The position numbers and the translations under genes are program-made. 64,000 nt of DNA. Source: an uncultured Acetobacteraceae bacterium. GTDB lineage: Bacteria > Pseudomonadota > Alphaproteobacteria > Acetobacterales > Acetobacteraceae. The notes under the pieces are model-generated. The model did no database searches and was not told the DNA's origin. It worked only from the letters and a program-made list of their open reading frames with translations. The DNA is taken from assembly GCA_937873225.1 (NCBI GenBank), contig CALMVN010000146.1, positions 335-64,334 on the forward strand. Reading direction: 5' to 3'. Shown in pieces: positions 46,131-52,234 of this stretch; position 1 is the stretch's first letter, and each line of letters starts with the position of its first letter.

Positions 46131-46382
46131 ATGTCGATGACCACCCGGATCATCTACCAGCCCTACCACCATGCCGGCCATGCCTCGCTGCGCGCCGGCA
46201 CGCCGGTCGCCTGCCGCACCGCGGAGGAAGGCCTGCGACGGGCCGAGCGCGCCTTTTCCGCGGGCCTGGTGGCGGGCGCGGACGTGGTGCTGGTGCGGCA
46301 CGACGAGGATGCGGACGAGTTCGGCGATCCCGAGTTCATCGGCCGGCTGGGCGACACGCCGGATCCGGCCGAACCGTCCTGA
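46131..46382 (+). CDS. Hypothetical 83-aa protein, probably SOS-regulated
   Basis: Codon usage matches neighbouring genes; sequence IYQPY...D.DADEFGDPEFIGRLGDTP. Start is 46131 or 46137. Confidence 0.7.
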   Translation: MSMTTRIIYQPYHHAGHASLRAGTPVACRTAEEGLRRAERAFSAGLVAGADVVLVRHDEDADEFGDPEFIGRLGDTPDPAEPS

Positions 46383-46397
46383 TCCGGCCGGAAACGC

Positions 46398-48785
46398 TCA
46401 GCCCGCCGGGCGTCGCGGCAGCTGGCGCCGCAGCAGCTCCTCGAACTGCCTGAACACCGGCGCGCGGGCTATGGTGAAGTCGGTGCGACCCGGCTCCGCC
46501 GCCGGCTCCGCGTCCTGGACATCGCCCGGGGCGACGAACTGCATCTCCGAGGACCCTTCCAGCAGGACAGGCGAGTCGTAGATGTGCAGGTCGGGGCGGT
46601 TCTGGAGGTTCCAGCGGCTGGTCAGCACCAGGCCGGGCGTGTTGCAGATCCAGCGGTACTTCGCGAGTGCCGCACCCAGGAGGGCGATGAAGCCGTCGGC
46701 GCGGGAACACCACAGCACGCTGCGCAGCGCCGAACGGTTGATGTTGTCGACGAACCGCACGCCCGACCGCCCGGCGACGTCCGCCAGCGCACGCCCCAGC
46801 GCCAGCTCGTGCGCCAGGTCGCTGCCGGCCGGGGCCTGCCCCGCCTGGCCGTGGTCGTGAACGTCGTTCAAGCCGTCCAGCACCACCGTGCAGCCGGGAA
46901 AGGCGCGCGCGAGGTGGCGGAGCAGGGCGGTCGCGAAGTCGTCCAGGTCGACCATGGTGCGGTTGCCGGTCCGGATGCCGAGCAGGATCACCGGCGCCGG
47001 CCGCCGCCTGGCCGCATCCGCTTCCCGGCGCGCCGCCTGCAGCTCCGGCCTCGCCTCGGCCGCTGCCAGCACCGCGCCGCGGAGCGAGGCCGGCACGCTG
47101 ATCGCGGTGTACTTGATGACGCGCTGGCGGCGCCGGTAGAACGCGTCGACGTGCGATGCGAACGGTGCGGCCTGGCGGGCGATGCGTCCGTCCAGCGACG
47201 GGAAGATGCGCTCCTCCGGCCCGAAGAACTGCTGCGTGCGGTCCAGCTCGAACATCTGCAGCTGCGGCAGCCGGTCCGTCGGCAGGTTCTGGCGCAGCAT
47301 GGCGGCGAGCCCCGACAGGTCCTGCCACACGTAGTGCCCGATGTGCATGGCGCAGCCGCCGAACACCAGCTGCACGGCGGGGTCCACCGGCCGGTCCCGT
47401 CCTTCCGCCAGCGCCGCGTCGAACCGGCTGAGATGGCGCAGCATCGTGTCGCCGACCCGGGGGATGGGCACGAAGTCGTGGGCGGTGGCCGGCGTCTGCA
47501 TCACCAGCAGCTCCGCGGTCGGAAAGTACAGCGCGTAGTTGCGGAAATGCCCGCCCGAGCAGATCACGTAGAACACCAGCCCGGTCGCCTCCTGGAGGAA
47601 GCGGTAGGCGAAGCAGTCCCGCTCCAGCAGAAGCGCGAACCCGTCGCTGTCCACCGGGTCGCCGTCCGCAGGCGAGGGCCACTGCATGCGCCCGGTCCGG
47701 AGCAGCCGGTTGGCTTCCTGCTCGAGGGGGTGCAGCACGGCGCGGCGCATCAGCTCCGGCTCGAAGCCGCGCAGGCCGCGCCGCGTCGGCACCAGGTAGC
47801 CGAGCCCGGGCGGCAGGGTGTCGCTGAGCGCCCAGATCCGCGTCTCGCCGCCCCGTCCGGTCGCCTCCATCCAGGCCGGGGCCAGGCTGCCCAGGTCGGC
47901 GGACGGCACGCCGCCGGTCACCGCGGCGAGCGGCGGGGACGGCCCGTCGCGGCCCAGCACCCCCTGCTCCCACAGCCCCTCGAACGCCGGCATCGCCTGG
48001 CGCAGCACGTGCTCCCGCAGGGCGGGCGGCAGGTGGCCCAGATGATGTCCGACCACGCGCCCGTGCAGGTCGGCGAACCAGGCCGCCCGTTCCCCGTCGC
48101 GGTGGCGCAGCGCGATCGTCAGCATCGGCGCGAAACCGGTCTCGATCGCCTCGACCCGCCACCCGTCCTGCAGCTCGGCAGGGGTTCCGCCGGGGCCGAG
48201 CGGCACCATCGCGCCGGGATGGCCGATGCGGTAGCCGCTGGTGCCGGCGACGGGCTCGAAGCGGAGCGGCGGCGGCGGACCCTGCCAGGTCTGCGCGGCC
48301 TGCACCGACGGTGCCGGCGCGTCCAGCAGCGCGTCCAGCCCGTGCCGCACCACCTGCGGCAGCCGGAGATAGGCCTGCACCGCGGGCGGCATGGCGATGC
48401 GGATCGGCGCGTCGCGGGTCATGGACAGCCACAGCGCCACCTCGCGCATGCGGGCGGCCGAGCGGGCGCGCTCCGCGTGCGGCCGCTCGTGCGGCGGCGG
48501 CGCCATCCGGCCGGTGTTGTCGATGTTCCACCAGGCGAACTCGCCGTTCTCGTGTCGCAGCACCAGCAGCCATAGCGGGTCCAGCAGCGTGAACAGGCTG
48601 TCCGCCCGCCAGCCCGGGTTGAACAGCCGCACCGGCCGCTCCGCGCTCATCAGCGCGATCGGCGGGCGGCCGGGGATGCGCAGGAGCATCCCGTCCGGGC
48701 CGTGATGCACCGGACGCTCGACCAGCAGCGGCAGCGCTCCGCCGACGGCATCGTCGGCCAACCTGGTTCCGGTTCCTTCAAACAC
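46398..48785 (-). CDS. Large hypothetical protein: two 40-aa N-terminal repeats plus a C-terminal GT61/DUF563-like glycosyltransferase-type region
   Basis: Protein-like sequence runs from about 48785 (GTG) or 48761 (TTG) to the stop. C-terminal motifs HIGHYVWQDL, LLGIRTGNR, TVVLDG, ADGFIALLGAALA. The frame stays open to 49640, so the start is uncertain (ATG 49280 is possible). Confidence 0.75.
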   Translation of the reverse strand: MFEGTGTRLADDAVGGALPLLVERPVHHGPDGMLLRIPGRPPIALMSAERPVRLFNPGWRADSLFTLLDPLWLLVLRHENGEFAWWNIDNTGRMAPPPHERPHAERARSAARMREVALWLSMTRDAPIRIAMPPAVQAYLRLPQVVRHGLDALLDAPAPSVQAAQTWQGPPPPLRFEPVAGTSGYRIGHPGAMVPLGPGGTPAELQDGWRVEAIETGFAPMLTIALRHRDGERAAWFADLHGRVVGHHLGHLPPALREHVLRQAMPAFEGLWEQGVLGRDGPSPPLAAVTGGVPSADLGSLAPAWMEATGRGGETRIWALSDTLPPGLGYLVPTRRGLRGFEPELMRRAVLHPLEQEANRLLRTGRMQWPSPADGDPVDSDGFALLLERDCFAYRFLQEATGLVFYVICSGGHFRNYALYFPTAELLVMQTPATAHDFVPIPRVGDTMLRHLSRFDAALAEGRDRPVDPAVQLVFGGCAMHIGHYVWQDLSGLAAMLRQNLPTDRLPQLQMFELDRTQQFFGPEERIFPSLDGRIARQAAPFASHVDAFYRRRQRVIKYTAISVPASLRGAVLAAAEARPELQAARREADAARRRPAPVILLGIRTGNRTMVDLDDFATALLRHLARAFPGCTVVLDGLNDVHDHGQAGQAPAGSDLAHELALGRALADVAGRSGVRFVDNINRSALRSVLWCSRADGFIALLGAALAKYRWICNTPGLVLTSRWNLQNRPDLHIYDSPVLLEGSSEMQFVAPGDVQDAEPAAEPGRTDFTIARAPVFRQFEELLRRQLPRRPAG
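48054..48623 (-). repeat. Internal protein repeat (48504-48623 and 48054-48173)
   Basis: Gapless 40-aa alignment with 15 identities: GWRxxxxxTxxxPxxxxxLRHxxGExAxWxxDxxGR. Confidence 0.8.
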
Positions 48786-49494
48786 GCCATACCTCGCAGC
48801 AGGACACGCAGCCGCGTCCGGATCGCCCGTCCTCGGGCCGCCGGATGCCGTCGCACCAGCCCGGTAGATGCCGCGAACAATGCCGAACGGTCCACGACGA
48901 AGTTGATGTCGTGGCGCAGCGGCGGCGCGGCGTCCCGCCGGCGACCGGCAGCACCCGGCCGGGATCGGCGATCCGGCCGCTCGAACCGTCGCCGGTGCGC
49001 GCGATGACGAGCGGCGACGCGGCCGCATCCGGCCGGGATCCGGCAGACAATCGCGCCCTTCCGCCGCTTCCGGCAGGCCGTCCGGCCCGGACGGCGGGTC
49101 GATTGCGCGACGCACCGGCACCCGGACAGGGTCGAACAGGTGGACGGGCCTGTCGCGCCATCCCGGCCCGAACGACCGCACCGGCCCCGCACCGCGAGGG
49201 ATCGCGACCGGGAACGGCCGAAAGGGCGGAGCCCGGGCCCGCTCCGCCCGTTGCCGAATCCGGAGCGGAACAGGATCCATGTCGATCCCCGTGAAGCCGC
49301 CTTCCGTCGCGGAGCCATGGCTTCCGCGGCGCGGGCCGCTTCCGCGAGGAACGGTCGGCACGCGAGTCCGCCCGGCTTCAGGCGGGCGACCTCCGGGACG
49401 CCGCGCATCGCCGGCAGGCGGTTTGACAGGACGGATCGCCCGTGTTGGGTGCGGCGCCGCCCCTTTCGACCCGCGCGTCCAGGATCCGCCGCCG

Positions 49495-52234
49495 ATGAAC
49501 CAGCCTTCCGCGACCGGACCAGGCGCCCTTGTTCCGTTGTTCCGGCGATGCGGCCGGATCCTGGCGCTCCTGCTGGTGGTCGGCGGATGGCTGCTGCCGG
49601 GCTGTGCGGCAACGGCCCAGGACCGCTCCGACGCCGGCACGGGCGCGACCGGTCATGCCCGGAGCGTCGACCCGCTGGCCGGGCTGACCCCGATCGAGCG
49701 GCAACGGCTGCGGGCGATCCTGGACGCGCCGGTCCCGGCCGCCGCCGGGGCGCCCCCTGCCGCCGCCAAGGCCGCGGCACCGGCCGCCGCGCCCAAGCCG
49801 AAAACGGTCAGCGTGGCGCCGGACAGCCTGGCCGGCCAGGTGCTGGTCGAGGCGACGGTGTTCCGGCGCGGGCTTCTGGCGGACGGCTCCACATTTCTGC
49901 GCCTGTTCGGCGACATCGCCCTGTCCGGCCGCTGGCTGCAGCGCGAGATGGTGGACCCGGCCGCGCGTGCCGCCCTGTTCGACGCGTTCTGGCGCAGCGC
50001 GCTGGTGGTGCTGGTGGGACTCGGCGCCGAGCACCTGCTTCTCCTGGCGCTGCGCCGTCCGCTGCGCGGGCTCGGCCGCGAGGCCGTCCTAGCCGACGAG
50101 GAGGCGGTGGACCCGCCGCTCCGGGACGCCGCCGTGCCCGGCCTGGTCCAGGCCGGGCCGCCGGCGCCCCCCCCCCCGGCGGGCCCCGCGCCCCAGCCGG
50201 GGGCCCGTCGGCCCCGCCCCCCCCTCCTGCCGCCGCCCCCCGGGCCCGGGCGGGGCCCGGCGGGGGCCGCCGGCTCCCGCCGACGCGGCGGACACGGCGC
50301 CGCTGCCGGGAGCCGTTCTGCCCGGCACCCCGATCGTGCCGACGCCCCCGTTGCCACAGCCGGCCGGAAGCGCTTCCGGCTCCCTGCCGGTCGACCCGCC
50401 ATCCGCCGACACCCTGCCGTCCGGCGAGGCGGCGTCCGCAGAGGAGAACCAGGCGGAGAACCAGGCGGAGAACCAGGCGGAGCACCGGTCGCGCGACGCC
50501 GCCCACAGGCGCAACACGCTGCGCGTGCTCCGCCGCGTGCCCTTCGCGCTGCTTCGCCTCGTGTTGAAGCTCCTCCCGCTCGGCGCCTTCCTGCTGATCG
50601 GCAACGGCGCCGCCACCCTTGTCGCCACCGCACCGCACACGCAGCTGGTGATCCTGGCCGTCACCAGCATCTACGGCGTCAGCCGCAGCCTCTGGCTCCT
50701 GATGGACATGCTGCTGGCGCCCCGCGCGCCAGGGGTGCGACTGGTCGAGGTATCGAACGAGACCGCACGCTTCCTGATCGGCTGGTGGGGCTGGCTGGTG
50801 GCGGTGCTCACGGTCGCCATCTGCATCACCGATGTCGGCCGGATCCTGGACCTGCCGGCACGCGCAGGGCTGGCGATCACCCGCCTGGTGGTGCTGGTGG
50901 AGCACGTCCTGGTCGCGGTGCTGATCTGGCAGACCCGTCGCAAGGTCGCGGAAAGCCTTCATCCGCCGCGCCGCCTGCGACGGCGCTCCTTCGGCCGGGT
51001 GCTGACGGTGCTGGCCGACCGCTGGTGGGTCCCGGCGCTGTTCTTCGACGCCGCCCTCTGGTTCGTCTGGGCGGCGCAGATACGCGGCGGCTACGCCAAG
51101 ATGTGGCAGCTGTTCCTGTCGAGCTGCATCGTCATCCTGGTCTGCCGCCTGATCGCGGTCATGCTGCTGGGCGGGCTGGACCGCCTGTTCCGGGTCGAGC
51201 CAGGCGTCGAGCTGCAGCATCCCGACCTGTTGCGGCGCGCCGGCCGCTACTACCCGGTGCTGCGCCGCATCGTGGTATGGGCGCTGAGCGTGGCCGGCGC
51301 CGTCGTCCTGCTGCAATGGTGGGGCATCCCGGCGCTCGGCTTCTTCACGCACGGCACCCTGGGGACCCGCCTGGTCTCGGCGCTGGTGACGGTTCTGGTC
51401 ACGGTGGTGGTCGGCGTGCTGGTCTGGGAGCTGGTCAACGGCGCGCTCGACCGGCAGATCGGCCGGTTCAACGACACCAACCAGGCCATGCGCGCGATCC
51501 GGCTGCAGACCCTGCTGCCGATCCTGCGCACGCTGCTGTTCGTGGTGCTGGGCGCGATCCTGCTGCTGACGGTGCTGAGCGAGATCGGCGTGGACATCGC
51601 GCCCCTGCTGGCCGGCGCCGGCATCCTGGGCGTCGCGGTCGGCTTCGGCTCGCAGAAGCTGGTGCAGGACTTCATCACCGGCATCTTCCTGCTGGTCGAG
51701 AACGCGATGCAGGTGGGCGACAGCGTCACCGTGGCCGGGATCAGCGGCACCGTCGAGCACCTGTCGATCCGCACGCTGCGCCTGCGCGGCGGCGACGGCT
51801 CGATCCAGATCATCCCGTTCTCCTCGGTGTCCACCGTGGCCAACATGAGCCGCGACTTCGCGGTGGCCACGGTCAGCATCGCCATCGCCTTTTCCGAGGA
51901 CACCGACCGGGTGTGCACCATGCTGGACGCGATCGGCGCCGAGCTGCGCGCGGATGAGGGGTTCGGGGACAAGATCCTGGCCGACTTCGCCCTGAACGGC
52001 ATCGACAGCCTGGGCGAATACGCGGTGGCGATCAGCGGCACGATGCGCTGCACCGTGGCCGGGCGCTGGCCGGTGCAGCGCGAGTTCAACCGCCGCCTGC
52101 GTGCCCGCATGATGGAGGACAGCATCGCCCTGCCTCAGGTGCATCGCACCCTCGACCTGCCGGCCTTGCCCGGCCTGCTCGATCGGGCGCAGCCTCGCAC
52201 GGCGACTTTCGACCAGGACACGAGCCATGGCTGA
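49495..52234 (+). CDS. Large MscS-family mechanosensitive channel, frameshifted near 50160-50280
   Basis: The N-terminal half (TM plus APDSLAGQVL) is in ORF 49279..51957. The C-terminal half (LAGAGILGVAVGFGSQKLVQDFITG, QVGD, GTVEHLSIRTLRLR, IIPFSSV, QREFNRRL) is in ORF 50336..52234. The frames differ by one. Confidence 0.85.
50155..50280 (+). repeat. Nearly A/T-free tract with C11 (50167-77) and C8 (50217-24) homopolymers
   Basis: Only 5 A/T bases in about 126 nt; coincides with the frame change in mscS. Confidence 0.85.
50443..50482 (+). repeat. 12-bp tandem repeat x3.3 encoding (ENQA)3
   Basis: GGAGAACCAGGC x3 followed by GGAG. Confidence 0.9.

Follow-up and report, generated by a model that had tools for sequence, protein, structure and literature searches.

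Glycosyltransferases of family GT61, defined in part by inverting transfer from a uridine diphosphate (UDP) sugar, are known mainly from animals, in which EOGT and POMGNT2 are both disease genes, and from plants, in which they take part in xylan decoration. To our knowledge, their bacterial relatives have barely been studied. The 64,000-nucleotide stretch considered here (the window; contig CALMVN010000146.1 of assembly GCA_937873225.1, from an uncultured Acetobacteraceae bacterium) encodes a protein of 795 residues, the target, which has no match in Pfam, in NCBIfam or, with phmmer, among the sequences of the PDB; the profile of its family also finds nothing in the PDB sequences at E<=10. We regard the target as a probable glycosyltransferase of inverting type, located in the cytoplasm and belonging to a new, GT61-related family. 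The explanation that we consider likely, though far from certain, is that of a soluble, metal-independent enzyme of GT-B fold, which belongs to an undescribed family and is a very distant relative of CAZy GT61.

GT61 enzymes carry three signatures, NxxHxxxD, RxxxRxxxN and HGAxxT (bioRxiv 10.1101/2025.07.18.665579; PMC13123520). An asparagine and two arginines form the "N-R-R constellation", which holds the diphosphate of UDP, the asparagine by way of the beta-phosphate, and a histidine is the proposed base. These residues are N163, R294, R298 and H166 in POMGNT2, N245, R372, R377 and H248 in EOGT, and N394, R515, R519 and H397 in SbXAT (PMC8360118, PMC13123520, bioRxiv 10.1101/2025.07.18.665579).

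The AlphaFold2 model of the full-length target, based on 145 aligned sequences, has a mean pLDDT (predicted local distance difference test) of 93.6 and a pTM (predicted TM-score) of 0.89. Alternating beta and alpha elements occupy residues 471-558 and 599-721, and a terminal helix residues 774-791. The model thus has what defines a GT-B fold, two Rossmann-like lobes, a cleft and a C-terminal helix that crosses back, and dozens of GT-B structures match it at prob 0.8-1.0. When the model is compared with the PDB by Foldseek, chains of the GT61 enzyme POMGNT2 take all of ranks 1-11 (E 7e-5 to 6e-4, prob 1.0). The next ranks are occupied by the Xanthomonas GT41 OGT homologue, the GT9 heptosyltransferase II, UDP-GlcNAc 2-epimerase, glycogen phosphorylase, FUT8 and EarP; the margin of POMGNT2 over the other GT-B families is about tenfold in E-value.

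The initial annotation of the window, made from the sequence, had called the C-terminal part GT61-like because of three short strings. The strings are present (they start at residues 481, 601 and 696), and the blocks that they mark are the most conserved of the family and colinear with the GT61 signatures. Over 145 family sequences which share 20-30% identity, the HxGH block keeps H481 in 137, G483 in 137 and H484 in 139. In the model it comes after strand 471-475 and marks the N-terminal end of helix 482-497. Compared to NxxHxxxD, the histidine is kept, the asparagine is replaced by histidine and the acid has moved by one position (N/Q488, E/D489). In the RxxNRTxxD block, R605 is conserved in 144/145, R609 in 143/145, T610 in 139/145 and D613 in 117/145 sequences. 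This block comes immediately after strand 599-603, the first of the C-lobe, and the last asparagine of the GT61 motif is an aspartate. The spacing between H484 and R605 is 121 residues, compared to 128 in POMGNT2, 124 in EOGT and 118 in SbXAT (PMC8360118, PMC13123520, bioRxiv 10.1101/2025.07.18.665579).

Further downstream, R609 and position 703 are separated by 94 residues, compared to 45-47 in GT61, and the family therefore has an insertion of about 48 residues, in which D637 (142/145), G638 (145/145), N640 (132/145) and E660 (140/145) are conserved. The GAxLAKYRW block that follows keeps G704 in 144/144, K709 in 137/143 and W712 in 142/143 sequences, and it is the sole stretch that is aligned both by the Pfam GT61 model and by hhalign. 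The initial annotation had drawn attention to the leucine that takes the place of the HGAG histidine, a residue which in GT61 lies close to the donor sugar. The leucine is there, but it is nothing special: position 703 is a tryptophan in 111 and a leucine in 25 of 144 family members, and the bona fide GT61 proteins of the same genome also lack the histidine. The target keeps all the near-invariant residues of the family and therefore, judging by its sequence, should be active.

Several results weigh against this assignment. The target does not hit the Pfam model of GT61 (PF04577, Glyco_transf_61; gathering score 27 bits) at E<=1, and a hidden Markov model (HMM) built from 29 bona fide GT61 sequences finds nothing better than E 0.24 among the 145 family members. 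When the C-terminal domain of the family is compared to the profile of the same 29 sequences, hhalign gives 7.6% (P 0.0046), over the C-lobe only, and 1.9% with a profile of five GT61 sequences. Hence no sequence method puts the target in GT61 or in any glycosyltransferase family. Substitutions affect the asparagine of the N-R-R constellation, that of RxxxRxxxN and the histidine of HGAxxT. The TM-scores given by Foldseek are low (0.23, 0.31-0.34), with a root-mean-square deviation of about 10 Å, as is expected because the target is a two-lobed enzyme with 365 extra residues, and the preference of the model for GT61 over other GT-B families is modest. The equivalences between motifs are proposed from order, spacing and position in the secondary structure rather than from a three-dimensional superposition. 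Both hhalign and Pfam pair the GT61 "RLFVSR" strand with strand 633-637, whereas the motifs map it to 599-603; the latter register is favoured by the spacing and by how well R605, R609 and D637 are conserved. Finally, the genes next to the target, none of which is a glycan or polysaccharide gene, are functionally uninformative.

The other comparisons give some measure of the distance. The best PF04577 score among the paralogues of the genome is 16.9 bits (E 0.017, contig C345). PF04577 matches four of 72 family members, all below threshold (best E 0.0061), and it is the only Pfam family that matches more than one member. As a control, POMGNT2 and EOGT themselves score no better than E 0.045-0.09 with a profile built from bona fide bacterial GT61 proteins: GT61 itself therefore spans such divergence. 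Since membership of GT61 fails the sequence tests, the family of the target is best called a new GT61-related GT-B family. The GT61-like character given to the C-terminus by the initial annotation thus stands for the fold, the best PDB match and the order of the motifs, but not for membership of GT61.

By analogy with POMGNT2, EOGT and plant XAT, a nucleotide-sugar donor would sit in the cleft between the lobes. Arg605 and Arg609, at the start of the C-lobe, would hold the donor diphosphate together with His481, and His484 would deprotonate the acceptor hydroxyl, so that the sugar would be transferred with inversion. The DGxN/E660 insertion and the GAxLAKYRW block would complete the donor pocket. 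The N-terminal module, a part resembling a beta sandwich together with helices, is predicted to pack on the catalytic domain; it would most likely serve acceptor selection or oligomerisation, as POMGNT2's FnIII domain does.

The N-terminal half was described by the initial annotation as a novel tandem binding module of 40 residues. The two 40-residue stretches (48623-48504, residues 55-94, and 48173-48054, residues 205-244) do align without gaps at 15/40 identities, a similarity far beyond chance: a comparison of the N-terminal 160 residues with the next 200 gives a BLASTP E of 4e-8, and hhalign finds 99.5% (E 3.6e-23, 81 columns) between the profiles of the two modules and 99.6% (E 3.9e-24, 136 columns) with longer pieces. 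However, the repeated unit is a beta module of about 136-150 residues, with six to seven strands and a helical segment, rather than 40 residues, which are its best conserved three strands (PGW...LxHxxGxxAxW). The repeat matches no Pfam or NCBIfam model. When the N-terminal 365 residues are modelled alone, the pLDDT is 86.6, and above 90 in the modules, but Foldseek finds nothing credible for this model, its best hits being at E 0.72 in the PDB and at E 0.048 (prob 0.03) in BFVD. The bridge to the catalytic domain has a pLDDT of 86-97 in the full-length model, compared to about 68 in the N-terminal one; it is confident only alongside the catalytic domain. The module is thus real and new, although longer than was thought and, as shown below, an integral domain of a single family. 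The two findings on which the initial annotation had staked its reading, a C-terminal region that models as GT-B and a repeat that maps to no Pfam family, both hold.

A word-indexed search retrieved 39 clusters of the family at 90% identity. An exhaustive phmmer search of 1.84 billion representatives gave 644 clusters at E<=1e-3, 146 of them at E<=1e-30. The family therefore comprises at least 644 clusters at 50% identity, and its usual form is one module followed by a catalytic domain of about 440 residues. In the sources that give names, every named member is a "hypothetical protein", and ten distant members are all unnamed or hypothetical. Among 187 homologues, 110 have the architecture module-catalytic, 42 module-module-catalytic and 28 the catalytic domain only (some are fragments), while five are head-to-tail double enzymes. 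In metagenomes, the proteins P0041, P0046, P0083 and P0096 are module-catalytic-module-catalytic double enzymes of 1230-1310 residues; such proteins hint that the family may work as dimers.

The module is never joined to an unrelated catalytic domain in the 187 homologues (0/187), and for this reason it is counted as an obligatory N-terminal domain of the family rather than as a free binding module. There are two exceptions in the genome of the target. The 583-residue open reading frame (ORF) C45:496-2244 (+), convergent with a full paralogue, has one module and a different, unannotated C-terminal domain. The 446-residue ORF C300:12453-13790 (+) has the module without the catalytic domain and a disordered, acidic, proline-rich tail.

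Module 2 is the copy which most family members carry, whereas module 1 is restricted to the two-module subfamily and is absent from the short homologues. The tree of the catalytic domains separates one-module from two-module proteins almost perfectly (49/50 and 44/45, support 0.98-0.999), so the duplication of the module happened essentially once. The target falls in the two-module clade.

The genome holds six full-length members of the family, on contigs C146, C45, C44, C218, C345 and C240. Elsewhere it encodes five bona fide GT61 (PF04577) proteins (C333, C68, C29, C318 and C22), of about 340-410 residues once trimmed to their likely starts, which brings the GT61-type or GT61-like genes of the 4-Mb genome to eleven. 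Scanning 185,579 species genomes with a pattern gave 224 places. The best 79 of these are almost all in metagenome-assembled genomes of lichen-associated Acetobacteraceae (Lichenicola, Lichenicoccus) and in Endosaccharibacter, often with five or six per genome. In even samples, 19/151 Acetobacteraceae genomes have a match, compared to 1/400 other genomes of the phylum. The family thus has a patchy distribution, with a concentration in those Acetobacteraceae that are associated with lichens.

The target has no signal peptide and no hydrophobic or transmembrane segment (the maximal Kyte-Doolittle mean over 19 residues is 1.46), and is therefore cytoplasmic. The surface-glycan-modifying role suggested by the initial annotation is thus unsupported, the more so as no glycan genes lie nearby. 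Its remark that there is no polysaccharide cluster in the vicinity was right: the neighbours are modC, modB, modA, thiM, a small conserved ORF, an MscS-type channel gene and a 2-oxoglutarate-Fe (2OG-Fe) dioxygenase gene.

No gene is a universal neighbour of the family across the 79 loci, and each group of paralogues has its own synteny. Most groups lie among unrelated housekeeping genes (pyruvate kinase, DAO, GST, dienelactone hydrolase, 5'-nucleotidase, sugar transporter), and in one group a pectate-lyase-like beta-helix protein is encoded directly downstream. There is also a conserved cassette, which encodes a 367-residue FAD/NAD-binding protein, a protein of about 250 residues resembling short-chain dehydrogenases/reductases (SDR-like) and an AP_endonuc_2 TIM barrel of about 270 residues, and which looks like a sugar or glycoside pathway. 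It occurs at C44:571-5348 of this genome and at loci L047, L066, L067, L069, L072, L090 (genome G421) and L091 (G009), and is kept across at least two alphaproteobacterial families. A one-module family member adjoins it in most loci; in L091 this member is divergent.

In G421, the cassette lies in a glycan island (L090, C1:2945000-2964999), which also holds an insertion sequence (IS) integrase. The genes that flank it encode a 1397-residue GT2-WsaF protein, a TPR-GT2 protein, RmlC and two PhyH dioxygenases, and an operon there unites those for GT2-WsaF, TPR-GT2 and RmlC with an SDR/epimerase-like gene. The distant family member of this island has 603 residues and a G+C content at third codon positions (GC3) of 0.53, below that of its neighbours. 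In G009, the flanking genes encode an RgpF-GT1 protein, a UbiA prenyltransferase and a HAD hydrolase. Fusions are found to Sulfotransfer_3 (P0066, G110) and to TPR and a GT-D-like domain (P0086). The contexts of these relatives tie the family to carbohydrate chemistry, without pointing to the acceptor of the target.

Three kinds of function can be weighed against these data. The target may decorate a polysaccharide, an oligosaccharide or a small-molecule glycoside in the cytoplasm, either the side chains of exopolysaccharide, lipopolysaccharide or capsule precursors or a compound of glycoside metabolism; this would be the glycan-modifying enzyme of the initial annotation, moved to the cytoplasm. 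The annotation of bacterial GT61 proteins as capsular polysaccharide biosynthesis proteins speaks for this, as do the distant member in a rhamnan-type cluster, the sulfotransferase fusions and the paralogue in the cassette with FAD-type, SDR-like and xylose-isomerase-like TIM barrel proteins. However, there are no glycan genes within about 8-10 kb of the target or of most paralogues, and six scattered paralogues would be unusual for a single glycan pathway, so this role is proposed tentatively, as somewhat less than an even chance. The same solitary position of most paralogues among housekeeping genes would suit a protein glycosyltransferase, like EOGT/POMGNT2 or EarP, HMW1C and OGT-like enzymes, in which the modules dock a specific cytoplasmic protein and each of the six paralogues has a target of its own. 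The closest structures are indeed those of protein O-glycosyltransferases, the target is cytoplasmic, some relatives are fused or linked to TPR-bearing transferases, and POMGNT2 uses its accessory beta domain for the peptide acceptor (PMC8360118). This role is nevertheless rather unlikely: no candidate substrate gene is linked, the module is unlike known peptide-binding folds, and plant and bacterial GT61 enzymes act on polysaccharides. Its boldest form, in which a new CAZy-level family would read protein acceptors with a module of new fold and the paralogues would be a cytoplasmic protein-glycosylating set, the bacterial counterpart of EOGT/POMGNT2 O-glycosylation, is decidedly improbable.

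A GT-B protein need not be a glycosyltransferase: it could, for example, bind a ligand without catalysis, resemble a phosphorylase, or act on nucleotide sugars as an epimerase or hydrolase. The fold matches do include UDP-GlcNAc 2-epimerases and glycogen phosphorylases, and none of the three GT61 signature motifs is free of substitutions. But these matches rank below glycosyltransferases, the near-invariant His, Arg, Asp and Lys argue for catalysis, and the arrangement of RxxxR and HxxH is GT61-like, unlike that of epimerases, which makes such an activity very improbable. A glycosyltransferase related to GT61 is therefore the preferred explanation.

The coordinates of the gene and of its parts are given in Table 1. 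The GTG start is supported by the upstream GAGG, by a 100%-identical protein of 795 residues on record, by the aligned N-termini of the orthologues and by the jump in GC3, which is about 0.95 within the gene and 0.63-0.83 upstream of 48785. A longer gene, with an upstream start, an ORF of 1080 residues and a possible third repeat at FGPGWR, was considered and rejected: GC3 falls in this stretch, the starts of the orthologues agree with 48785, and the stretch is the deletion remnant of a tandem paralogue.

Table 1. Coordinates of the target gene, its domains and conserved blocks, and the upstream remnant.
Feature	Position in the window	Strand	Description
Target gene, whole	46398..48785	(-)	795 aa + stop; GTG start at 48785, GAGG 6 nt upstream
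N-terminal module 1	48306..48728	(-)	~residues 20-160; strands 21-89, core FNPGW...LRHxxGxxAxW, helices 103-153 (DSSP of the model)
N-terminal module 2	47856..48263	(-)	~residues 175-310; strands 175-246, helices 254-308; G208, W209, H228, G231, W236 and D239 conserved
Bridge	47691..47855	(-)	~residues 311-365; short strands and two helices
GT-B N-lobe	47001..47690	(-)	~residues 366-595; beta-rich sub-domain (WPSPxDG, FAYRF), then Rossmann-like part starting at HxGH
GT-B C-lobe and C-terminal helix	46401..47000	(-)	~residues 596-795
H481-I-G-H484 (family HxGHxLW(N/Q)(E/D))	47334..47345	(-)	Counterpart of NxxHxxxD, proposed from order and spacing; H484 proposed base
R605-T-G-N-R609-T-M-V-D613 (family RxxNRTxxD)	46947..46973	(-)	Proposed counterpart of the diphosphate-binding RxxxRxxxN
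D637-G638-L-N640 (family DGHN)	46866..46877	(-)	Almost invariant; inside a stretch ~48 aa longer than in GT61; E660 follows
L703-G-A-A-L-A-K-Y-R-W712 (family WGAGLAKYRW)	46650..46679	(-)	Proposed counterpart of HGAxxT/HGAGL; His replaced by Trp in most members, by Leu here
Decayed 5' remnant of a tandem paralogue	48920..49355	(-)	In frame with the target by chance; reads ...PVAIPRGAGPVRSFGPGWRDRPVHLFDPV; FGPGWR at 49155-49172

The remnant matches the upstream copy of locus L003 (blastp E 9e-12) and has a low GC3. According to blastn comparisons with relatives, about 1.7 kb of the upstream tandem copy is missing from the window. Two tandem paralogues are found at this locus in L001, L003, L005, L007 and L008, whereas the upstream copy is mostly or wholly lost in the window, L002, L004 and L006. 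The gene order around the target is kept at the orthologous loci L001-L009.

The small ORF next to the target (46134-46382 (+), about 82 residues, MSMTTRIIYQPYHH...) is convergent with it, with stop codons 16 nt apart. It has no Pfam match, and its identity across the orthologous loci is 87-98% (93-98% in 6/7), compared to 78-91% for neighbouring genes there. The MscS-type channel gene, on the other side (49495-52234 (+)), changes frame across a Pro/Ala stretch of extremely high GC content, with one frame open to about 50100 and another from about 50330. Its N-terminus resembles a signal peptide (MNQPS...LLPGCAA), and in the Lichenicola locus L006 it is a single ORF of 875 residues. Either a true frameshift or a mistake in the assembly could explain this change of frame in the window. 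What looked like an empty gap of 1.5 kb upstream of the target is not one, about half of it being the N-terminal part of this frameshifted gene.

This analysis defines a sizeable and wholly unannotated bacterial family, which is a candidate for a new family of glycosyltransferases in CAZy and Pfam. On the proposed mapping of the motifs, it keeps a GT61-like catalytic His and double Arg, as "H-R-R" instead of N-R-R; its donor lobe carries a conserved insertion, and its N-terminal domain had not been seen before. The family thus offers a natural way to test which of the GT61 signature residues are truly needed. It is also a marker family that has expanded in Acetobacteraceae associated with lichens, and the glycobiology of these bacteria may matter for symbiosis. 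If the acceptors were proteins, the expansion to six or more paralogues in these bacteria would correspond to enzymes with distinct protein targets. The models are confident enough for the direct design of mutants and constructs.

Among the known systems, the GT41 OGT homologue XCC0866, the GT9 heptosyltransferases and the GT104 enzyme EarP are, like the target, cytoplasmic bacterial proteins of GT-B fold, and some of them glycosylate proteins. Their rank in the fold search is lower, and they do not have the arrangement of HxxH and RxxxR. In the plant GT61 enzymes (SbXAT, XAX, XYXT), the series NxxHxxxD/RxxxRxxxN/HGAxxT is mirrored by HxxHxxx(N/Q)(E/D)/RxxxRxxxD/[W/L]GAxLA in the target family (bioRxiv 10.1101/2025.07.18.665579). 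However, the plant proteins are type II membrane proteins of the Golgi which act on xylan, and they lack N-terminal beta modules.

The bacterial GT61 proteins (PF04577, formerly DUF563) have the same order of motifs, YGHW...D, SRxxxxxxR and GxxGSGLxN, and their C-lobe aligns weakly with that of the target; the five such proteins of this genome likewise do without the His of HGAG. They differ in their size, 350-400 residues with no N-terminal module, and in their PF04577 scores, 55-90 bits, compared to none for the target and at most 16.9 for its paralogues.

The best structural match is to POMGNT2 (AGO61) and EOGT, the metazoan GT61 protein O-GlcNAc transferases (7E9J/7E9K, 6XI2, 8KB7, 9WJK). 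The target has no detectable sequence homology to them, the Asn of their N-R-R constellation is a His in the target, and its C-lobe has an extra segment of about 48 residues with the invariant DGxN...E. Its accessory domain is N-terminal, duplicated and of another fold, whereas theirs is a C-terminal FnIII domain; and they reside in the lumen of the endoplasmic reticulum, whereas the target is cytoplasmic and bacterial. Nevertheless, the GT-B fold is the same, with, on the proposed mapping of the motifs, a His at the start of the first helix of the N-lobe, RxxxR right after the first strand of the C-lobe, 121 residues between the two compared to 124-128, a G-A-x-L block later in the C-lobe, no DxD motif, and an accessory beta domain beside the catalytic domain.

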